A stretch of DNA of 64,000 bases from an archaeon. GTDB taxonomy: Archaea > B1Sed10-29 > WALL01. Below, piece by piece: positions 13,708 through 64,000 of this stretch. The stretch's first letter is position 1. Every line of letters starts with the position of its first letter. The stretch spans positions 57,808 to 121,807 of the forward strand of contig JBHOSQ010000002.1 of assembly GCA_042584585.1 (NCBI GenBank), written 5' to 3'. Under the pieces are notes generated by a model. That model worked only from the letters and a program-made list of their open reading frames with translations. It was not told the DNA's origin and did no database searches. The position numbers and the translations under genes were made by a program.

Positions 13708-14277
13708 TTAGCAAACAGTTTCGCCAAACCACGCGTGGCACTTGTTTTCCTCACAAACCACGCACACATCGATGCTTTCGCCCGGCGCGAACCCCATCGT
13801 GGTGCACCTCGAGGTCACGAGGCCACACTTCCCCAGCACGGTCACGGGCACCTCGCCCTCAAGGCAATACGGATGGCGGCAATGCATGAAAACGTCTACG
13901 TTGGACGGCAGTCCCGACTTGAACACCAATGCCTCGGAAGAGAACTCTTCTTCCTCAAGAATCGCTTCCCTCACGAAGTTCACGCCCGTCTCCCTGCCCG
14001 CATAGGCAGAGCTGAGCAATTCGGATGTGACGAAAAACACGGACGCCGCCGGAGCCTGCTCCCTCACAGACTGCACCACCCCGTAAACGACCATCAGCAT
14101 GACGACAGCAATGACCCCGCCCTGCAAAAGCTTCATCACGGCCCATTGTTGCCCGCGGGAGCCGATGCCAATGCCAAACCGCCTGCGAAGCAGGCCGGGG
14201 GGTTTGCTTCCCGGGGTAGCAGGGGGGCAGAGCCCCCCTAAGACGCCGGTACATTGCTGGCCCTTGGAGCCAATCAA
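13708..14277 (-). CDS. Pilin-like protein with duplicated signal motif and an in-frame palindromic insertion
   Basis: MIGSKGQQ...IGSRG/QQWAVMKLLQGGVIAVVMLMVV; similar to the neighbouring pilin (FKLL..VVA). Confidence 0.75.
   Translation of the reverse strand: MIGSKGQQCTGVLGGLCPPATPGSKPPGLLRRRFGIGIGSRGQQWAVMKLLQGGVIAVVMLMVVYGVVQSVREQAPAASVFFVTSELLSSAYAGRETGVNFVREAILEEEEFSSEALVFKSGLPSNVDVFMHCRHPYCLEGEVPVTVLGKCGLVTSRCTTMGFAPGESIDVCVVCEENKCHAWFGETVC
14167..14251 (-). mobile_element. Hairpin element inserted in the pilin gene
   Basis: CGGCGTC-TTA-GGGGGGCTCTGCCCCCC-T-GCTACCCCGGGAAGC-AAA-CCCCCC matches the tRNA-flanking elements; flanked by 17/23 direct repeats. Confidence 0.65.
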
Positions 14278-55891: not shown

Positions 55892-56916
55892 AGAAAACAC
55901 ACTTCCTTGGCGCTGCCGTCAGCATTTCAATAATTGCGGGGCTGCTATCGTTCGTGCTCTTGTCGGGCATAGGATTTTCGATTGGGGGTGTGTTGAGCCC
56001 AGCCTTTTACGATGGATTGATGGGCATGAACATCATAATGCTCATCCTGGGGCTCGTGTTCCTCGGCGTTTCGATGGGCGCACTGTTTTCCGCGACAAGG
56101 TTCTTGGCGCACATGAGGGCGCTCGGCCTCGCGGCAATCACAAGCCTTATTGTGGCATTAATCGGGTCAGTGTTTTACTGGCAGCAAATGACCAGCTACA
56201 CCATCGTGGCGCTGGCGTTCGTCGCAGGGATTACGGCGGCCGGGTTCTTGTCCAGCAAGGCACGGGGCACCAAGTTCAGCGTCGGATTCGAGCACGCGGG
56301 CAAGGCAATGCTCATCATGGCGATAGTGGCGTGCGTGGGGACACTGATTGTTGTGACGGTCGACGCCAAGCCGTACGAAGACCAATTCATTGAGGGCATC
56401 ACCGGGATTGCTGTCATCGACGTGGACGAGGCAACTGTCGAACAAATGGTGAGGGCGGAAAACCCCAAGATGGATTTCAACACGTTCCTTGCGCAACTCG
56501 CTTCGGGCTACCCGGGCTACACGCTCGAGGACCAGCAAAAAGTGGAGCAGTTATATAGTGATTATGAGGCGGACTACGAGGCCGAGGTCGCCCGCTCTGT
56601 GCAGGAGACAATGTCCACGATTAACGAGTCCAAAGAAGCGTCGAGCACCTTGATTCGGTCTACTAGTTACTTCGAGCTGATGTACAAGTATATCTCAGTG
56701 TCTTATGGGCTGGCGATGCTGCTGCTTTTGGGGTTGAGCGCGATAGTTTCTGCGCCCGTGGCAGGAGGAGTCAGTACTGTGCTGCACAGGCCATTGCCAA
56801 AGGCCGCGCACCCACAGCCCAAGGAAAAGGCGCCCGCTGTATGGGAAGAAGAAAAAGCAGTGGAACAGCACAAAAAGCTGGAAGAGCTCGAAGACCAGGC
56901 TATGGGGAAGAAATAA
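55888..56916 (+). CDS. Hypothetical multi-pass membrane protein
   Basis: About 6 TM plus an acidic loop; ATGA overlap with map. Confidence 0.75.
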   Translation: MKKTHFLGAAVSISIIAGLLSFVLLSGIGFSIGGVLSPAFYDGLMGMNIIMLILGLVFLGVSMGALFSATRFLAHMRALGLAAITSLIVALIGSVFYWQQMTSYTIVALAFVAGITAAGFLSSKARGTKFSVGFEHAGKAMLIMAIVACVGTLIVVTVDAKPYEDQFIEGITGIAVIDVDEATVEQMVRAENPKMDFNTFLAQLASGYPGYTLEDQQKVEQLYSDYEADYEAEVARSVQETMSTINESKEASSTLIRSTSYFELMYKYISVSYGLAMLLLLGLSAIVSAPVAGGVSTVLHRPLPKAAHPQPKEKAPAVWEEEKAVEQHKKLEELEDQAMGKK

Positions 56917-57115
56917 GCGGGCCCGGAGGGATTTCAACGCCTGAAACTCAGGCGGCACGTTAGGCTTGGGAGCCGCGGGTGGACGTTGACCCAAGTCAAC
57001 GTCAAGGGCCTAGGGCTCCCAGAGACAAAAACTGCGAGCGCCAGCGAGCTCTTATCCACTCGCCTGGGGGGGCGCTTCCCAGGGTAGCGGGGGGCTGTGC
57101 CCCCCATGACGCTGA
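56915..57115 (-). mobile_element. 201-bp hairpin-rich element at the tRNA-Arg 3' end, closed by a duplicate of that end
   Basis: Direct repeat 56915-56938 vs 57116-57139 (23/24); blocks collinear with 63866-64000. Confidence 0.75.
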
Positions 57116-57118
57116 AAG

Positions 57119-57193
57119 CGGGCCCGGAGGGATTTGAACCCCCGATCTATTGCTCCGAAGGCAATCGCGTTATCCAAGCTACGCTACAGGCCC
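57119..57193 (-). tRNA. tRNA-Arg(TCG)
   Basis: GGGCCTG/CGGGCCC acceptor, ATTGC-CTTCGGA-GCAAT anticodon arm, GTTCAAATC; TATA at 57217-57224; no encoded CCA. Confidence 0.95.
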
Positions 57194-57225
57194 ATGAAAA
57201 GATGTTAATGGGGCAGTATATAAAT

Positions 57226-57681
57226 TTAGACTACTGGAACCTGTGTAACCAGCCTTTCGTCGTACTCTTTGTCGCAGTAGTCGCACCGCATCCGCAGCGG
57301 GTTTGCCGACACGGTAAAGCTCGTCTCCAAAGGCTCGCGGGCCGCGTTCGTCACGCAATGCGGGTTCAGGCACTTCAAGTAGCCCTGCACCGTCTTCGGC
57401 AAGCCCACTTTGTGCTTCTCCACGCGCTTCCCGCCCTTGATTGTGTTGATGGTCGCGTCCGGCGCAACAAGCGCGATGATGTCACGGCGCTCCTTGCTCA
57501 CAAAAACGTCTTCCAGCTTCACGATGTCTTTCTTGCCCATGCTCGGCGACTTCGCGTTCAGCAAAAGCACTGACTGGCCGCCGTTCGCCCCCCCAAGCAA
57601 AGTGTAGACCACCAAACCCTTTCCCGCGGGAATGTGGTCAACCACTGTTCCGTCCTTGATTGGCTTTACCTCGAGTGCCAT
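57226..57681 (-). CDS. pyrI: Aspartate carbamoyltransferase regulatory subunit
   Basis: IKDGTVVDHI, KKDIVKLE, CLNPHC...CDYC. Confidence 0.95.
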   Translation of the reverse strand: MALEVKPIKDGTVVDHIPAGKGLVVYTLLGGANGGQSVLLLNAKSPSMGKKDIVKLEDVFVSKERRDIIALVAPDATINTIKGGKRVEKHKVGLPKTVQGYLKCLNPHCVTNAAREPLETSFTVSANPLRMRCDYCDKEYDERLVTQVPVV

Positions 57682-57682
57682 T

Positions 57683-58579
57683 TCACACCGCCCCCAAAAG
57701 CATTGCTATGAGCGCCATTCGCGTCGGCACCCCGTAAAACGCCTGCTTGAAGTACACGCACCGTGGGTCCGAGTCGCACTCCCACGTGATTTCGTCCACG
57801 CGCGGAAGCGGGTGCATCACAATGCTCTTTTTCTTCATCGTCGACAAGACATCCGGCGTGAGGATGAAGCTGTCCTTGACTTTTTCGTATTCTGTGGGGT
57901 CCGAAAACCTCTCGCCCTGGATGCGCGTCATGTACACCACGTCCGCGTCGGCGACGTCAAGCTCGTTGAACTCGTCGTATTTCAATCCTTTTTTGTACTC
58001 GTCCGGCATCTTCAGCAAGTCCGGCGCGATGAACCTGAAGTCCGCGCCGTACAGGTTAAGCGCTTCGCAAAGAGAGTGCACGGTGCGGCCGTACTTAAGG
58101 TCGCCGACCATTGCCACCTTGAGGTTCTTGAGCGTGCCCAATTCTTTCTGGATGGTGAACAAGTCCAGGAGCGTTTGGGTTGGGTGCTGGTGCGAGCCGT
58201 CGCCGCCGTTGAGTACGGGGACGCTTGAGACCTCGCTCGCGAGCCTTGCCGCGCCGTCCATGGGGTGGCGCATCGCGATTATATCGGAATAGGCCGCGGC
58301 CATGCGGATTGTGTCCGCGGTCGTCTCCTTTTTCTTTATGGACGTGCCTGAGGGATCGGAAAAGCCGATTACCGAGCCGCCGAGGCGGTGCATCGCGGCC
58401 TCAAAGGACAGCCTCGTGCGGGTGCTGGGCTCGAAAAACAGTGAGGCCAGTACCTTGCCGTGCAGCATGTCGCTTGAGCCCTGCTTGTTGAGGATTGTGA
58501 GCATTTTGTCGGCACGGGAGAGAACGAGGTCGATGTCCTTGCGCGAAAAGTCCTTAATTGAGATTACGTGCTTGAACAC
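57683..58579 (-). CDS. pyrB: Aspartate carbamoyltransferase catalytic subunit
   Basis: FFEPSTRT, HPTQTLLD, GDLKYGRTVHS, HPLPR. Confidence 0.97.
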   Translation of the reverse strand: MFKHVISIKDFSRKDIDLVLSRADKMLTILNKQGSSDMLHGKVLASLFFEPSTRTRLSFEAAMHRLGGSVIGFSDPSGTSIKKKETTADTIRMAAAYSDIIAMRHPMDGAARLASEVSSVPVLNGGDGSHQHPTQTLLDLFTIQKELGTLKNLKVAMVGDLKYGRTVHSLCEALNLYGADFRFIAPDLLKMPDEYKKGLKYDEFNELDVADADVVYMTRIQGERFSDPTEYEKVKDSFILTPDVLSTMKKKSIVMHPLPRVDEITWECDSDPRCVYFKQAFYGVPTRMALIAMLLGAV

Positions 58580-58669
58580 TTGAACACCTCAAATTTTAGG
58601 GGGACGAGGGTATAAAAAGCTAGCCCAGGAAAAGGCTTAAAAAAGGCAGTAAGCACAAACCTCAACCCC

Positions 58670-59965
58670 ATGAGGCTTAGAAGCTTAGTCGGCGTGCTCG
58701 TCTTCATTGCTTTTGTGCTGCTGTCCGCAGCAGCCTTTACCTATTTTGACGCATACCTCATGTTCACGATAAGCAGCTCGCTGTTCGTAACCCAGGCAGC
58801 GATTTTTTTGATGGCACTCGAAGACGCCGACTTGAAAGACCCTAAGCCCAAACGGTACCCCTCGCTCACGATAATGGTGCCGGCGTACAACGCAGGGAGC
58901 ACCATTGTCGAAAGCATCAAGCGCATCAAGGAAATGGAGTACCCCCGTAAGTTCAAGATAATCGTGATGGAAGACGCGAGCACGGACGACACTTACGAAA
59001 AAATCAAGAACATTCCTGGAATCAAGATAATCCGGAACACGAAGAACCAGGGCAAGGCCGCGAGCCAAAACCAGGTATTGGCTGTTGTTGATACTGAATT
59101 GGTGGCGAACATTGACTCCGACACCTTCCCCGAAAAAGACGCTTTGATGAAGACCATTGGGCACTTCAATGACCCAAAAATCGGGGCTGTGACTGTGTTG
59201 ATTCTGCCGACGCACACGCGGAACTGGCTGCAGAAGGTCCAGCAGTTCGAGTACTACAACGCGTTCGGGTTCTGGCACAAGAGCATTTCTTCGCTCGGCG
59301 GCATGTACGTCACGCCCGGGCCGATGACTGTGTACAGGACGCAGGCGCTGCAGGACGTCGACGGTTTCGACCCCGGCAACATCACTGAGGACATGGAGGT
59401 CGCGCTGCACATGCAGAAGATGGGGTGGGACATCAAGTGCTCGGTTAATACCAAGGTTTACACCGAGGTGCCGGACACGCTGCGGAGCTATTTCCGCCAG
59501 CGCATCAGGTGGTACCGCGGGAAGTTCCTTAATGGGGTTAAATACAAAGATTTATTGTTCAACCGGTCGCACGGCGCGCTTGGCACGTTCATTTACCCAA
59601 TGAGCTTCATCGTCGAGATATTGTCGATGACCGTGTTGATTGGGATAATCACGATTAATCTGGACGGGTTTATTCGCGCGGTGAAGCACTTCGTGGGAGT
59701 GGTGCAGCAGAACGCGTTCAGCCTCGAATTGTTGTTTAATTTTGACCCGCTGACGTGGCCGCCGTACCTCGTGTTTCTGGTGCTGACGCTGCTGATTTGG
59801 GGCTATTTGCTGTACACTAGCATGGGGTTCGACAGCAACCGGAAGCCGAAGCTGACGGAGCTGCCATACATACTGTTTTATTTGACTTTCTACTCATTCT
59901 TCATCACGTTCACGTACGTCATGAGCTTTTTCCACGAGCTAAAGGGAAGTGAAAGAGTATGGTAA
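58670..59965 (+). CDS. GT2-family processive glycosyltransferase (PgaC/cellulose synthase-like)
   Basis: DASTD, DSD, TED, QRIRW motifs; N- and C-terminal TMs. Confidence 0.9.
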   Translation: MRLRSLVGVLVFIAFVLLSAAAFTYFDAYLMFTISSSLFVTQAAIFLMALEDADLKDPKPKRYPSLTIMVPAYNAGSTIVESIKRIKEMEYPRKFKIIVMEDASTDDTYEKIKNIPGIKIIRNTKNQGKAASQNQVLAVVDTELVANIDSDTFPEKDALMKTIGHFNDPKIGAVTVLILPTHTRNWLQKVQQFEYYNAFGFWHKSISSLGGMYVTPGPMTVYRTQALQDVDGFDPGNITEDMEVALHMQKMGWDIKCSVNTKVYTEVPDTLRSYFRQRIRWYRGKFLNGVKYKDLLFNRSHGALGTFIYPMSFIVEILSMTVLIGIITINLDGFIRAVKHFVGVVQQNAFSLELLFNFDPLTWPPYLVFLVLTLLIWGYLLYTSMGFDSNRKPKLTELPYILFYLTFYSFFITFTYVMSFFHELKGSERVW

Positions 59966-60621
59966 GCACTTATGTCAAGGGAATCGCGCTGGGGGCAGTG
60001 CTGTTGATTGCGAGCATGTCCGCGCTATGGATACTGGACCAGCAGCGCACCAACATACTGTCCAAGGAAATCCAGGACATGACCTGGGAAATGGAGGACT
60101 CGCGGCTTTACCTCGAGTACTTGGGCACGCTGGGGACTGACTCATGCGAAGTGATGAACACGCGCGTCGTGCAGCAGGTCGGGAAAAGCGACGAGCTAGC
60201 CAAAAAGATTGACTCGTACAAGAACGCGAACATGTTCAGCGAAGAATACTACGCCATCAAGAAGACTTTCATTTACAAGAACTTTGAGTTGTTCCTGACG
60301 TTCAAGACATTGAAGGAAGAATGCGGCGCAAACGTGAACCAAGTGATTTACTTTTACGCCGAAGACGACCCCGACCAGTCGATTTGCCCGGACTGTGGGG
60401 TACAGGCAGGCATCCTGAACACGCTTTCGAACAACTGCCCGAACACGTGGGTGTTCGCCCTGCCGTACAACGGGTACATTGACCTGGTGAACGTCGTCAG
60501 GGACCAGTACGGAGTCGAGGGTATGGCCGTCGTCGTGAACGGCGAGAACGTGCACTATGCACTGACGGACTTGCCGACGCTTGAGGGCGAGATTACATGC
60601 GGCGCGAACCCGCTTGAATAA
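59959..60621 (+). CDS. Membrane-anchored thioredoxin-like protein
   Basis: N-terminal TM; IYFY...CPDC. Confidence 0.65.
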   Translation: MVSTYVKGIALGAVLLIASMSALWILDQQRTNILSKEIQDMTWEMEDSRLYLEYLGTLGTDSCEVMNTRVVQQVGKSDELAKKIDSYKNANMFSEEYYAIKKTFIYKNFELFLTFKTLKEECGANVNQVIYFYAEDDPDQSICPDCGVQAGILNTLSNNCPNTWVFALPYNGYIDLVNVVRDQYGVEGMAVVVNGENVHYALTDLPTLEGEITCGANPLE

Positions 60622-60651
60622 AAAGGAAAAGGGACAAAAAGCCTTTCAACG

Positions 60652-60713
60652 GGGGATGCCGCCGAATTGGCGGCACTCCCCAAGCGGCCCGACATTGACC
60701 CAAGGTCAATGTC
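60652..60713. repeat. Two hairpins upstream of tRNA-Gln
   Basis: GGGGATGCCGCCGAATTGGCGGCACTCCCC and GACATTGACCCAAGGTCAATGTC. Confidence 0.8.
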
Positions 60714-60721
60714 ACTCAAAA

Positions 60722-60794
60722 AGCCCCGTAGTCTAGTGGCCAAGGATGAGAGGTTCTGGACCTCTTGACATCGGTTCGAATCCGGTCGGGGCTA
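60722..60794 (+). tRNA. tRNA-Gln(CTG)
   Basis: AGCCCCG/CGGGGCT acceptor, AGAGG-TTCTGGA-CCTCT, GTTCGAATC. Confidence 0.95.
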
Positions 60795-60818
60795 TTGCAA
60801 ACCGACACCGCAGGTCTG

Positions 60819-60840
60819 GACGTTGACCAAAGTCAACGTC
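60819..60840. repeat. 22-bp palindrome between the tRNAs
   Basis: GACGTTGACCAAAGTCAACGTC. Confidence 0.85.
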
Positions 60841-60863
60841 AGGGGCTGCCGGTGTCACTCAAG

Positions 60864-60938
60864 GGGCCCGTGGTCTAGTCTGGTTAGGACGTCTGTTTCA
60901 CAGACAGAAGATCCCCGGTTCAAATCCGGGCGGGCCCA
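60864..60938 (+). tRNA. tRNA-Val(CAC)
   Basis: GGGCCCG/CGGGCCC acceptor, TCTGT-TTCACAG-ACAGA, GTTCAAATC. Confidence 0.95.
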
Positions 60939-60941
60939 CTC

Positions 60942-61029
60942 ATTTTTTTGTTTTTAGTCCGCTGGCCAGCGCCAGCTGGGCACGGACAACGTGCCGCCTG
61001 AGTTTCAGGCGATACGGGTGGGCCCACTC
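60942..61029 (+). mobile_element. Short version of the tRNA-3' element, closed by a duplicate of the tRNA-Val 3' end
   Basis: 60988-61011 is the exact reverse complement of 56938-56961; 61012-61029 matches 60924-60941 at 16/18. Confidence 0.7.
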
Positions 61030-61112
61030 TTCTTTTAATTTGTCCCTTTTGAGTGGTTTCAACGAAAATGCTTTTAAAGGCTGGCTGAGTTACTGCAATG
61101 TTGGTGTTAGCC

Positions 61113-63725
61113 ATGAATAAGGCAATCCTATTAGTTCTTGTAATCGCCATCTTGGGCACTGGGGGCGCTTGTGCCGAGAGTATACTCACTTTCGGCGACG
61201 CCAGCCACAATATGTCTCTCCAAGAAACAGTGTTTATGGAGGGTGATACTGTTTACGTGTCGGTATTCCCTGACACGATAGGGCTGGGAGCGCCACGCAA
61301 CTACAGCGTGTCCAGCTCGGACGACGCTGTTGGCACCACCATGAACCTATCCGCCAACGGCCTGGCGGAGTGGCGCGGCAGCTTTGTCGTGGGATCAGTA
61401 ACCCAGCAAAACGTGTCCATAAAAGCCGACAGCGCCACGGCAAACGTAACGGTCTTTGCCGACTTGGACAGCAATGGCGCCAACGCCAGTAAACTTCTGG
61501 AAATCGACAACACCGCGCCGGCGATTACTCCGTCGGTGAACTCCAGTGACGTGGCGAACGGGCAGACCGTCAAAATCAGTGCCACTGTCTCGGACTCCAA
61601 CGGCGTGGACAACGTCAGCATCAGCGTGAACGGGACCTCGCTATCTGTCACGAACTCAAGCGGCACGTACACCGCGACGTATACTGCGGGTGGAGTCGAG
61701 GGGACTTACATCGCGAACGTGACCGCGAACGACACCATAGGCAACTTCGGGTTTTCGACGACGAGCTTCGGCGTCGACAACTCCGCGCCCACCGGCGCGG
61801 TGGTTCAGCCGGCGAACGAAAGCTACGTGAGCTCGCAGTCCCCAATGATTTGCGCGAACATCACGGACCCCAATGACGTGGACGTTTCTTCGATAGCAAT
61901 GGATGTGTTCGACGGGAACACACACTTCCCCCTTGAGACCACGACTGCGATTACGGATGGGTACAAGGCGTGCATCGACATCGCGCCGCAGACCGAGAAC
62001 GACGGCACACACTTGGACGTTTATGTGAATGCGACGGACTCGTTAAGCGCGTCGAATAAGCTCGTGAACTTTTACTGGTGGTTCAAGGTTGACTTGAACC
62101 CACCCTCCATTACGCTGCACGCGCCGGGCAACGGAAGCGTGAACCCCGCCCACGTGAACATCACGGTGACGGACAGCTCGTCCGGCGAGATGAACTGCTC
62201 GTACTTCCTGAATTCCACTACTGAATATTATATTGGGTGGGTCGCGAACAACACATTCAACTCGACGAACCTGACGACCCCGGCCGACGGGAATTATTCC
62301 TTGACCGTGTCGTGCGAGGACATGGCGGGCCACAGCTCTACCACGGGGCCTTCGTCCATCACGGTTGACACGACTCCCCCTGTAATAGGCGTGGCGGTCA
62401 ACGACACGTATTTGATTGTGGGCGAAGCCGCATTGGTTACAGCGACTGTGGCGGACCTGCTTGGCGTGGACAACGTCAGCATCAGCGTGGGCGGTGTGCC
62501 GATGTCGACGACTGGTGGCGGCGGGACTTACACTGCGGTTTTCACCCCCGGCGCGCTGCCGGATGGAATTTATAATGTTAACGTGACTGCCAACGACACG
62601 CTCGGGAACATCGCGTTCAACGACACCATGAACATCACGGTGGACGCGACTGCGCCTGTGATAACCGTTTACGAGCCAACGGGCGTCTACAACGACTCCG
62701 AGGCCGTCAACTTCAACATCACTGTCCTAGAGAAGGGAAACCTTTACGTGGACGCCAACTTCAGCAACCAGACCGAAGTCACTTGTGAGTGGAGTGTGGA
62801 TAGCCCTGGATGGGGCACACTAGACGGCCTCTTCGGAACCTTTACTCACAAAGAAAATGGCTCGCACTTCGTGGCGTTCAACTGCAGTGACGCGGCTGGA
62901 AACACAGCACAGTTCAATGCGACGTATGATGTTAACGACAGCACCCCGCCGGTCATGAACTTGATTTCCCCGGAAAACCTCAATTACACTTCCACCAGTG
63001 TGCTGCTTGAGTTCAACGTGACGGAACACGCCAACTGCAGCTACAGTGTCGACAACGGCGCGGCGAGCGACGTCGTCATTGGCTACGGGAACATGTACCC
63101 GGCGTACACGGACTATTACTGGAACACTACGCTCACCCTTTCGAACGCGTCGCACAACATTTCGGTTAACTGTACTGACACAGGAAACAACACTGTTTCG
63201 GCGCAGCAAAACTTCACGGTGCAAATCATTTTCCCTGACGGGGACGGCGACGGGTACGACAACCAGACGGACTGCAACGACGCCAACGCCGCGGTAAACC
63301 CCGGCGCGACTGAAGCATGCAACGGAATTGACGACGACTGCGACGGCACGATTGACGAGGGCTGCGGAGGCGGTGGAACCCCGCCAGGGCCAGGCGGATC
63401 GGGGCCAGATGGTGGGTCATTTACCCCCAACAACGAGGACCCACCCGAGGCAGTGCCTGAAGACGACCCGATAGAGCTTCCGACGCCGACCCCAATTCCT
63501 GTGGCAACTGCCACACCGGAGCCAACTCCAGAGCCGACTCCGACACCCACTCCAGAGCCAACGGCTACGCCGACCCCAACGCCGGCATCGAGCCCGATAA
63601 CCGGCCTTTTGTTCTCCAACGGAAGCCTCTTGTGGGGCTTGGCTGCGTTAATGGCGCTTGCCACTGCGTGGTCGCTGTGGGCAATGAGCAAAGAAAGGGC
63701 CAAGCGCAAGTGGTACGAAAACTAA
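61113..63725 (+). CDS. Ig-like repeat surface glycoprotein with MopE-like metal-binding motif, PT linker and C-terminal TM
   Basis: Signal peptide; repeated DxTxP-bounded domains; many NxS/T; DCNDANAAVNPGATEACNGIDDDCDG; PT repeats; SPITG + TM + basic tail. Confidence 0.85.
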   Translation: MNKAILLVLVIAILGTGGACAESILTFGDASHNMSLQETVFMEGDTVYVSVFPDTIGLGAPRNYSVSSSDDAVGTTMNLSANGLAEWRGSFVVGSVTQQNVSIKADSATANVTVFADLDSNGANASKLLEIDNTAPAITPSVNSSDVANGQTVKISATVSDSNGVDNVSISVNGTSLSVTNSSGTYTATYTAGGVEGTYIANVTANDTIGNFGFSTTSFGVDNSAPTGAVVQPANESYVSSQSPMICANITDPNDVDVSSIAMDVFDGNTHFPLETTTAITDGYKACIDIAPQTENDGTHLDVYVNATDSLSASNKLVNFYWWFKVDLNPPSITLHAPGNGSVNPAHVNITVTDSSSGEMNCSYFLNSTTEYYIGWVANNTFNSTNLTTPADGNYSLTVSCEDMAGHSSTTGPSSITVDTTPPVIGVAVNDTYLIVGEAALVTATVADLLGVDNVSISVGGVPMSTTGGGGTYTAVFTPGALPDGIYNVNVTANDTLGNIAFNDTMNITVDATAPVITVYEPTGVYNDSEAVNFNITVLEKGNLYVDANFSNQTEVTCEWSVDSPGWGTLDGLFGTFTHKENGSHFVAFNCSDAAGNTAQFNATYDVNDSTPPVMNLISPENLNYTSTSVLLEFNVTEHANCSYSVDNGAASDVVIGYGNMYPAYTDYYWNTTLTLSNASHNISVNCTDTGNNTVSAQQNFTVQIIFPDGDGDGYDNQTDCNDANAAVNPGATEACNGIDDDCDGTIDEGCGGGGTPPGPGGSGPDGGSFTPNNEDPPEAVPEDDPIELPTPTPIPVATATPEPTPEPTPTPTPEPTATPTPTPASSPITGLLFSNGSLLWGLAALMALATAWSLWAMSKERAKRKWYEN

Positions 63726-63757
63726 TAAAAAGCAGTATGTATAGAATAGCGCAGACC

Positions 63758-63779
63758 GGCATTGACCCGAGTCAATGCC
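63758..63779. repeat. 22-bp palindrome upstream of tRNA-Glu
   Basis: GGCATTGACCCGAGTCAATGCC. Confidence 0.85.
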
Positions 63780-63789
63780 ATTGACTAGC

Positions 63790-63862
63790 GCTCCCGTAGT
63801 CTAGTGGCCAAGGATTACAGGTTCTCAACCTGTCGACGTGGGTTCAAATCCCGCCGGGAGTA
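63790..63862 (+). tRNA. tRNA-Glu(CTC)
   Basis: GCTCCCG/CGGGAGT acceptor, ACAGG-TTCTCAA-CCTGT, GTTCAAATC. Confidence 0.95.
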
Positions 63863-63865
63863 CTC

Positions 63866-64000
63866 CAGCGTCCCTAGGGGGGAGCGCAGCTCCCCCCTGG
63901 CTACCCTGGGAAGCCCACCCCCCTCAGTAAATTGTCTCTGGGGGTCTTGTGCCCCCCGTTGCCCGACGTTGACCCAAGTCAACGTCCAGTCCCGACGTGC
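63866..64000 (+). mobile_element. tRNA-3' hairpin element, truncated by the window end
   Basis: CAGCGTC, G6/C6 hairpin, GCTACCCTGGGAAGC, TTGTCTCTGGG, GACGTTGACCCAAGTCAACGTC, ACGTGC in the same order as at tRNA-Arg. Confidence 0.75.

Follow-up and report, generated by a model that had tools for sequence, protein, structure and literature searches.

How did second copies of transfer RNA (tRNA) 3' ends come to lie downstream of intact tRNA genes, each directly behind the same short hairpin sequence? The locus that raises this question is found in a 64,000-nt stretch of DNA (the window; G000:C2:57808-121807), the end of which is also the end of contig C2. The source genome, G000, is a metagenome-assembled genome (MAG) of Candidatus Iainarchaeum (DPANN), with 1.02 Mb in 32 contigs and 45 tRNA genes; together with the sister species G001 and G002 it forms the genus set used here, with MAG completeness of 84-89%. 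A preliminary description of the window, made from its letters alone, had noted one 24-mer, AACGTGCCGCCTGAGTTTCAGGCG, after both tRNA-Arg and tRNA-Val, and this was confirmed at 56938-56961 (minus strand) and 60988-61011 (plus strand). A copy of the respective tRNA end follows it at once, identical at 22/23 positions for Arg (23/24 had been counted) and at 16/18 for Val. The 24-mer is the 3' end of a two-hairpin module, here named Z.

Z forms a family with a common structure; its sites are polymorphic between relatives, duplications of variable length flank part of its copies, and tRNA ends are preferred as targets. The preliminary view of a non-coding, multi-copy, inserted element with target duplications was thereby borne out, and no copy carries a gene. 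We tentatively propose, at a rough probability of 0.45, that Z serves as the recognition end for a group of non-autonomous insertion elements restricted to Ca. Iainarchaeum, which a putative enzyme moves in trans.

Structure and distribution of Z

Z is composed, in order, of a variable, covarying hairpin 1, the invariant linker AACGTGCC, also written (C)TAACGTGCC, and a terminal hairpin of 7 bp whose loop is GTT (C-R-S-C-T-K-A / GTT / T-M-A-G-S-Y-G). By sequence, at least four types of hairpin 1 can be told apart: type i, CTCTGGG...CCCAAG; type ii, CTATTTGCGG...CCGCTTTAG; type iii, GTCCGCTGG...CACGGAC; and type iv, GCCGCCGGG...CCCTCG. Some copies have an extra hairpin within the 5' arm of the terminal hairpin, or a palindrome, palA, in the hairpin-1 loop. 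A C/D-box reading of the extra hairpin (CATGACGTGAATCCC...) was dropped, as no canonical C box was seen on inspection of the sequence. The minimal element is about 59 nt long and opens with a short T-rich 5' start; the size of 90-200 bp proposed earlier belongs to composites, in which other repeat modules (X, Y, palA) stand on the 5' side of Z. The 3' module is common to all copies and the 5' ends and module content vary, with 5' starts of TTTGYCTCTGGG or (T)TCAGCGTC and lengths of 59-336 nt among the copies with a flank duplication. The same X-linker-Z architecture was found in the Arg element of the window and at a copy of the tRNA-Thr end in a sister species; its conservation between species, at tRNAs that differ, shows that X-linker-Z is moved as one unit.

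A covariance model (CM) of Z was built from ten clean copies. At E<=0.01 it gave 35 matches in G000, in keeping with the expectation of further copies genome-wide, 53 in G002 and 6 in G001, and at E<=0.001 none in 28 other genomes of the class. With a degenerate 24-mer pattern, 30 matches were counted in G000, 24 and 2 in its congeners and none in 38 further relatives; reversing the pattern as a control yielded 0 in all those genomes. The strict 24-mer pattern was confined to two MAGs in a set with one genome for each of 185,579 species, and to 11 metagenome contigs, with 0 matches in viral contigs. Two of the metagenome matches (L069, L073) have no hairpin 1, were judged to be chance, and were left out of the alignment, duplication and flank analyses. 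When two 15-mers were compared with viral contigs, 42 and at least 118 single matches were obtained; the sole CM match among the 42 loci (L129, 23.8 bits) is without the terminal hairpin and was likewise put down to chance. Rfam 15 gave only tRNA at E<=1 over window positions 56000-64000, which hold three Z copies, and over six further loci.

The pairing was assessed on an alignment of 78 CM-fitted hits, 76 of them distinct; such a fit leans towards the model, and the raw sequences show the same pairing. In the 76 distinct copies 96.9% of cells are paired, against 75.0% in shuffles, changes on both sides occur in 14/17 pairs, and there are 215 compensatory cells. The covariation is 0.429 against 0.112 for shuffles, of which 0/500 reach 0.429, and slid partners give <=0.057. 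The linker is near invariant while the stems differ among copies. Watson-Crick pairs account for 1128/1176 cells, G.T for 12 and A.C for 7; because G.T is as rare as A.C, the fold is equally good on both strands, and such strand-symmetric pairing would fit a signal at the level of DNA better than a typical RNA. Fold z-scores of three whole short copies range from -2.7 to -4.7.

Two variants of the module were seen. A second lineage of Z has the linker CTACCKCGCC and the terminal hairpin AGCTCAGGTTTGGGCTG, and its copy at tRNA-Arg(ccg) is followed by a degenerate copy of the tRNA-Arg(ccg) end. In a mosaic module, an inverted type-ii hairpin 1 (CAACCGCAGACTAAAGCGGGG...CCCCGCAAATAGGCAT) adjoins a CCAATTGCGATTGG palindrome and faces a forward Z head to head.

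Target duplications and insertion polymorphism

A flank duplication score of >=10 was obtained for 9/35 copies in G000 against 14/658 (2%) mismatched flank pairs, and for 25/74 distinct copies overall. It is the upstream sequence that is repeated, over 10-39 nt, so that the duplications of ~18-24 bp suggested from the window were too narrow a range and concern about a third of the copies. Duplicated tRNA 3' ends include those of Arg, Val, Ser, Leu, Thr, Met and others, and the 5' end of a tRNA-Gly is also duplicated, the element there being in inverse orientation. Among protein genes, the last 35-39 nt of one gene are repeated, as are stop-codon regions, including those of two convergent gene pairs with nearly overlapping stops. 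One whole gene copy is kept at every duplication.

Empty sites in related genomes, which had been named as a check, were obtained in three filled/empty comparisons. At tRNA-Met, G000 has no insertion, whereas contig L067 has a 59-nt Z flanked by a duplication of ~20 nt. The tRNA-Leu(cag) site, also empty in G000, carries a type-iii Z in L072 and X + Z in G002. Downstream of tRNA-Ser(gga), a ~150-nt Y + Z composite is present in G000 and the site is empty in L075. The same tRNA has been struck independently by different Z variants: with the site empty in G000, independent hits are the best account of the differing hairpin-1 types at the 3' end of tRNA-Leu(cag). At other sites with differing hairpin 1, recombination between copies may have replaced one type by another. 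The attR-side tRNA-Thr copy of G002 holds a tandem pair of different X...Z elements, and an identical 11-nt sequence stands behind both.

Two further sister orthologues without Z (of C13:13244 and C13:23023) were not accepted as clean empty sites, their downstream flanks being non-homologous. At the sister-species tRNA-Val(cac) there is no Z and synteny stops at the tRNA. Several intron-bearing tRNAs at sister-species loci were missed by ARAGORN and were identified by eye. A segment of ~700 nt next to a Z in L071 (514-1293, minus strand), with an open reading frame (ORF) of up to 259 aa, is missing at the same site of G000 (C1:49217); no PHROGs match was found for this ORF, of which a 188-aa version from an internal start was searched.

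The element after tRNA-Glu is cut by the end of contig C2, and it had been predicted that a hairpin and a copy of the tRNA-Glu end would be found beyond position 64000. The first 37 nt of contig C8 repeat the end of C2; they are followed by CGCCTGAGTTTCAGGCG and then by AATTCCGCCAAGGAGTACT, which is identical to the tRNA-Glu end at 14/19 positions, ungapped. As the 37-mer occurs 4 times in the genome, the overlap by itself is no proof of the join. The join is supported by the metagenome contig L068 of a relative, where Z, a cleaner copy of the tRNA-Glu end and the downstream gene of C8 are found together. Hence, the element probably continues on C8:1-54, with the hairpin as predicted and the degenerate tRNA-Glu copy at C8:55-73. 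Many contigs break inside Z.

Target preference and junctions

Twelve of the 35 copies in G000 lie no more than 200 nt from a tRNA, where 0.7 would be expected and 2000 random placements reached 5 at most. Copies elsewhere follow stop codons, lie between the genes of convergent pairs or belong to a variable island adjoining the rRNA operon. The relaxed tRNA specificity inferred from the window thus holds in that different tRNAs are struck; the family as a whole is not tRNA-specific. Z occurs in both orientations relative to neighbouring genes. The preliminary description had offered a co-transcribed RNA trailer as its alternative, which fails to explain why copies lie antisense or at protein-gene ends and why a T-run separates tRNA-Val from its element.

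At tRNA targets the duplication mostly opens in the T-loop and closes 0-10 nt beyond the discriminator base, and it never includes CCA. Mature tRNA was rejected as the template of the distal copies, since the duplications hold trailer bases and no CCA. In the flank consensus of 73 copies, 48 have T at position 2 and 39 have C at position 9, and position 7 is A/T in 79%; on these letters the consensus resembles a T-loop. Mismatches between the two copies number 30/138 in the first six bases after the hairpin against 8/307 later; the count was made on 23 pairs, two of the 25 having been dropped as parts of larger repeats.

Thirteen Z copies stand in one 18-kb island beside the rRNA operon, all in one orientation. 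This island (G000 C6:4000-24000; L081, L082) and its counterpart in G002 (C7:66000-72100; L098), which has 4 Z copies, are lower in GC and adjoin the rRNA operon. Promoter-like boxes (GGATAAAAGG, GATAGATTTAAG) recur in the Z-rich island, where a 20-nt motif, W (GAGTGGSWCCARGTRGRCAT), is found as well. Its genes at C6:4-24 kb run in both directions and encode Fic, a PD-(D/E)XK exonuclease, an Eco57I-type enzyme and unknowns, together with a weak transglutaminase-like match just below the cut-off. A 422-aa island protein of unknown family has no counterpart in 40 other relatives, and the islands of G000 and the sister species have only a restriction-modification enzyme in common. The island proteins gave no consistent candidate for a partner of Z, the content not being kept between species.

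Proposed mechanism and its alternatives

As no Z copy carries a gene, any mobilisation must be in trans. Polymorphic sites together with duplications show insertion, and a linker that is invariant next to stems that are kept paired yet free to vary points to recognition by a specific protein. Such a trans-acting protein would probably recognise the two-hairpin 3' module as folded single-stranded DNA, a substrate suggested by pairing that is almost purely Watson-Crick on both strands. The enzyme would join the element into the target via two nicks 10-39 nt apart, and gap filling between these staggered nicks would yield the duplication. The targets are like the T-loop and T-stem of tRNA (TTCRAATCC), so that the left nick would often fall in the T-loop and the right nick just beyond the tRNA 3' end. 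Only insertions whose duplication preserves a whole gene would survive, which would leave copies beside tRNA ends, and either on a stop codon or directly behind one. The proposal leaves room for a host function, which Z may have on top of its mobility.

The movers named in the preliminary description were not recovered. No match over the cut-off was found in five genomes for reverse transcriptase (RVT_1, PF00078; positive controls matched 3/14), Cas1 (PF01867) or Y1_Tnp (PF01797; positive controls matched 7/14), nor for DDE_Tnp_1 in the three genomes of the genus. Phage_integrase gave none in G000 and one tyrosine recombinase each in G001 and G002, and TnpB-like genes (PF07282) were over the cut-off in G002 only, with none in G000 and G001. 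Since the MAGs are 84-89% complete and repeats assemble badly, absence of the enzyme is not established by these searches.

Several observations weigh against a trans-mobilised element. There is no candidate enzyme among the families searched, and no long autonomous copy of Z was seen in the genomes examined. Direct reading of the copies, with no separate inverted-repeat scan, gave no terminal inverted repeats, and reverse-complementing the 3' end (…GTTTCAGSYG) does not give the 5' starts. A clear duplication is lacking at 49/74 distinct copies and in the filled/empty pair at tRNA-Ser(gga). Hairpin 1 can be of an entirely different type at an identical site in close relatives, an outcome not predicted by simple transposition. 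Mismatches between the copies peak at the third base after the hairpin, in 12/23 pairs. Finally, the near-perfect pairing and the invariant linker could equally well reflect a host function.

Some of these points would be accommodated by template switching in replication with no dedicated enzyme, of the kind of microhomology-mediated break-induced replication (MMBIR) or fork stalling and template switching (FoSTeS). A strand stalled at a gene or tRNA end would copy an element elsewhere up to its terminal hairpin, after which the nascent strand would re-anneal by microhomology upstream of its point of departure, so that 10-39 nt are copied twice. No transposase would be required, in agreement with the searches, and variable duplication lengths, 5' starts and module content would follow. 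Bases 1-2 after the hairpin usually match the target and the third often does not, as in imperfect microhomology priming. The sequence TTAT-AATCC stands directly after the hairpin at three different tRNAs (Ser, Leu, Glu), as though the primer end came from the T-loop-like flank of a donor, and in L052 a Z at tRNA-Arg is followed by a copy of a tRNA-Leu end, as though the donor flank had been co-copied. We nevertheless regard this explanation as unlikely: a passive process leaves unexplained the invariant linker and the 97% paired hairpins in ~76 diverged copies, as well as the identical boundaries of the two different tandem elements, and no donor-recipient pair was traced.

Less probable still is retroposition similar to that of short interspersed elements (SINEs), in which Z would be the 3' tail of small RNAs inserted by target-primed reverse transcription (TPRT) at nicks. 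The common 3' module with variable 5' ends, the variable duplication length and the short, T-rich filler after the hairpin would suit such a process, and in some copies read-through from a tRNA could transcribe Z. The mismatches of distal tRNA copies cluster at T-loop positions 56-57, which are modified in archaeal tRNA; the same junction mismatches are, however, found at protein-gene targets. Moreover, RVT_1 was absent from the five genomes with the positive controls working, the 1-10 trailer bases in the duplications and the lack of CCA show that they were not templated by mature tRNA, G.U and A.C pairs are equally rare, and the many stem variants would require as many master genes.

A somewhat poorer account is that Z is primarily a host element (a 3'-end or terminator structure, an RNA stability element or a protein-binding site) spread by ordinary recombination, with the duplications as by-products. 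The structure and the linker are strongly conserved, single copies fold well, copies lie at gene ends and between convergent genes, and one orthologous site has kept the same terminal-hairpin variant with a different hairpin 1. Set against this are the restriction to one genus, a copy number of 6 to 53 among congeners, sites polymorphic between close relatives, both orientations relative to neighbouring genes, the T7 tract between tRNA-Val and its element, and the lack of an Rfam match.

That Z marks att-flanked remnants, similar to cis-mobilizable elements (CIMEs), left when a tyrosine-integrase element with a tRNA-end mimic of its own was deleted after integration is very improbable: a 9.5-kb island of G002 (L078, G002:C12:74870-84850), integrated in tRNA-Thr(cgt) with a 389-aa tyrosine integrase and an att repeat of ~40 nt (tRNA end + CTGACCCTACGGTAG...), does have two tandem X...Z elements interrupting its attR side, and the mismatches of the distal copy are on its element-proximal side, a placement also seen in attR sites, but the island's own ends are without Z, no integrase was found in G000, the elements are short (59-290 nt) with no remnant genes, and the dozens of targets, including stop-codon regions and a tRNA 5' end, would each need a matching attP.

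Comparison with known elements

No description of the Z family was found in literature searches. Small non-autonomous elements are well known in bacteria and little described in DPANN archaea. Among them, the REP (repetitive extragenic palindromic) sequences and bacterial interspersed mosaic elements (BIMEs) are short extragenic palindromic units in tens of copies, with compensatory stems and mosaics, often between convergent genes, and Z too consists of extragenic palindromic units with compensatory stem changes in mosaics. The REP unit is a GTAG-headed palindrome with a REP-associated tyrosine transposase (RAYT, Y1 HUH) as partner, whereas no such partner was found for Z (PF01797, five genomes), and Z differs further in its two hairpins with an invariant single-stranded linker, its 10-39-nt target duplications, its tRNA-end bias and its archaeal host.

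MITEs (miniature inverted-repeat transposable elements), including archaeal ones, similarly lie between genes in many copies, code for nothing and are non-autonomous, and they show both target duplications and insertion polymorphism. In contrast to these, Z has no inverted repeats that could be read at its ends, only the 3' module in common with a variable 5' end, and no fixed duplication length (10-39 nt in 25 copies). A parent insertion sequence (IS) was not found either (no DDE_Tnp_1 in the genus, no Y1_Tnp in five genomes, TnpB-like genes only in G002). Among IS families, IS1634 resembles Z in producing long direct repeats of variable length upon insertion; for IS1634/IS1549, the parts of the source that deal with them give repeats of 8-514 bp with no mechanistic model, and a preference of the family for Euryarchaeota (PMC2266710). 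Members of this family are, however, 1.5-2 kb long and encode a DDE transposase; a sequence relation to Z was judged by the DDE_Tnp_1 search alone. Palindrome-associated transposable elements (PATEs) derived from IS200/IS605 have subterminal hairpins at both ends, no target duplication and a Y1 TnpA acting in trans; in Z duplications are present, no Y1 was found and both conserved hairpins are at the 3' end only.

Insertion at a tRNA 3' end, with the tRNA end duplicated and the gene kept whole, is common to Z, casposons and tyrosine-integrase elements. The latter two are large, carry their own integrase and usually use one site with a fixed repeat, and a casposon has a Cas1 casposase, terminal inverted repeats and a 14-15-bp duplication. 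Z is distinguished from casposons by the lack of Cas1 (PF01867, 0/5 genomes), its variable duplications, small size and many targets, and from a CIME-like att element by 25 different duplicated sequences and the absence of Phage_integrase from G000. The attC site of integrons, a single R''-L''/L'-R' palindrome, is comparable in that the signal is set by the fold and not by the stem sequence, and the island copies of Z (13 in 18 kb) are co-oriented between genes. In Z, however, there are two separate hairpins, the target is duplicated, an IntI-type tyrosine recombinase is missing from G000 and the island genes run in both directions.

SINEs inserted by TPRT have a common 3' tail, variable 5' extent, variable duplications and no coding capacity, as does Z, which differs in the lack of a reverse transcriptase in five genomes and in pairing that is symmetric on both strands. 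In the transposing tRNA introns of Thermoproteales and in tRNA genes disrupted through mobile elements there are likewise small related sequences recurring in and around different tRNA genes; Z was never seen inside a tRNA and has target duplications, and accounts of intron gain, in the portions bearing on it, are without target duplications (PMC3293823; bioRxiv 10.64898/2026.10.13.758758). The nearest item in the literature, going by the pertinent part of its source, is a MITE-like C/D-box element of Pyrobaculum, which has inverted repeats and differs in kind (PMC6009581).

The feature set of Z is thus unmatched by any single known class: a 3' module of two hairpins that is defined by its fold, no inverted repeats, long and variable duplications, a strong preference for tRNA ends and no recognisable mover. 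On the practical side, Z breaks MAG assemblies at tRNA loci, and the pseudo-tRNA ends could mislead annotation pipelines. It also appears to drive rearrangements.

Related elements and tRNA introns

Copies of tRNA 3' ends 85-132 nt downstream of the gene were also found at tRNA-Arg(tcg) of G001 and G003 and at tRNA-Gln of G005, G003 and G005 belonging to other genera. The intervening elements are a hairpin with an inverted module Y in G001, an unrelated three-hairpin element in G003 and an inverted Y in G005. Since other hairpin elements with tRNA-end copies occur in sister genera, the behaviour belongs to the lineage and not to Z alone. In G003 (L035, G003:C32), the three-hairpin element lies in the 135 nt after a tRNA-Arg(tcg) with encoded CCA, before a 14/16 copy of the 3' end.

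Module Y (CCCTTTTYCTG - variable hairpin - GGTGGAAAAGCGYYGRYGGAAAA) is found before or after tRNA genes. Its core, GGAAAAGCGYYGRYGGAAAA, was detected in 10/41 genomes searched with one mismatch allowed, reversed-pattern controls giving 0-1; the positive genomes include all six of the family and one related at domain level only. In G001 and G004, repeated copies of the tRNA 5' end enclose a Y upstream of the tRNAs. In G020, which belongs to a different family in the class, the position of Y is intronic, within a 135-nt stretch matched by the Rfam tRNA model.

How archaeal tRNA introns arrived is still treated as an open question in the part of a recent preprint that addresses it (bioRxiv 10.64898/2026.10.13.758758). 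The lineage offers a tractable case for the entry of small sequences into tRNA genes. A broader idea, which we consider doubtful, is that an undescribed machinery of Iainarchaeia, with no recognisable kin in the transposase, integrase, casposase and RT families searched, inserts folded hairpin modules (Z in Ca. Iainarchaeum, Y and others in sister genera) at T-loop-like sequences, with nicks one to four helical turns apart, and also seeds tRNA introns. If this were true, hairpins seeded in tRNA genes would persist as introns where the splicing endonuclease can remove them, and a concrete route for the arrival of archaeal tRNA introns would be at hand. At G000 C4:11768-12170 (minus strand), tRNA-Trp has an intron of 59 nt and tRNA-Arg(cct) one of 82 nt, both of which appear C/D-box-like by eye (GATGA, CTGA).

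Features of the window and of related loci

The four tRNAs of the region, Arg(tcg), Gln, Val(cac) and Glu(ctc), were called alike by ARAGORN and Rfam (Table 1). The Arg and Glu elements have in common the ordered blocks listed in the preliminary description. For the Arg element without the last 5 nt of its terminal hairpin (56943-57117) the RNA fold z is -3.2. The proximal copy of the Arg duplication comprises the last 21 nt of tRNA-Arg(tcg) and 2 trailer nt, and the single mismatch of the distal duplicate is the third base after the hairpin. For Val, weaker similarity extends beyond the distal duplicate into the T-rich trailer.

Table 1. Coordinates of tRNAs, Z elements and associated modules in the window and at other loci
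Feature	Position	Strand	Basis or remark
Window
Distal duplicate of tRNA-Arg 3' end + 2 trailer nt	56915..56937	-	
Composite element 3' of tRNA-Arg, 180 nt (X + linker + Z)	56938..57117	-	sequence
Terminal hairpin CGCCTGA-GTT-TCAGGCG, 3' end of Arg element	56938..56954	-	7 pairs, compensatory changes across copies
Module Z of Arg element	56938-57027	-	CM match 70.4 bits
palA, GACGTTGAC-N4-GTCAACGTC, nested in hairpin-1 loop of Arg element	56982..57003	.	aligns as loop insertion
Linker of Arg element, 38 nt, between X and Z	57028-57065	-	
Module X of Arg element: CAGCGTC, G6/C6 hairpin, GCTACCCTGGGAAGC, C-run	57066-57117	-	
tRNA-Arg(tcg), intact	57118..57193	-	ARAGORN; Rfam tRNA 65.4 bits
palA-type palindrome 8 nt upstream of tRNA-Gln	60691..60713	.	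no counterpart at same place in sister species
tRNA-Gln	60722-60794		ARAGORN, Rfam
palA palindrome between tRNA-Gln and tRNA-Val	60819..60840	.	no counterpart at same place in sister species
tRNA-Val(cac), intact	60864..60939	+	ARAGORN, Rfam
Short element 3' of tRNA-Val, 72 nt	60940..61011	+	RNA fold z = -4.1
T-rich tract opening the Val element	60940-60956	+	sequence
Z of Val element, type-iii hairpin 1	60957-61011	+	CM match 39.2 bits
Terminal hairpin of Val element	60995-61011	+	
Distal duplicate of tRNA-Val 3' end	61012..61029	+	
palA-like palindrome GGCATTGAC-N4-GTCAATGCC, 10 nt upstream of tRNA-Glu	63758..63779	.	sequence reading
tRNA-Glu(ctc), intact	63790..63863	+	ARAGORN, Rfam
Composite X + Z element 3' of tRNA-Glu	63864..64000	+	stopped by contig end
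palA inside Glu element	63965-63986		
Other loci
Second Z lineage	G000 C8:2757-2816; L064:4814-4875; L065:1574-1626; L052:4737-4793; L055:3121-3183		
Mosaic module with inverted type-ii hairpin 1	L064:1290-1400; L068, first 40 nt; L062 flank	- (L068)	
Module Y	G000 C8:44421-44495; C13:8610-8678; C13:14070-14140 (-); C13:21808-21940 (-); C24:816-900 (-); C1:59160-59229		
Module Y, further loci	L266, L269, L270, L272, L275		
TnpB-like genes (PF07282), four	G002 C13:134192; C3:79611; C3:10561; C3:102282		

A lone module X (GCGTC, G6/C6 hairpin, GCTACCCCGGGAAGC, C6) was observed at window positions 14150-14250 on the minus strand, around C2:72023, where it stands upstream of a gene, with neither Z nor a tRNA.

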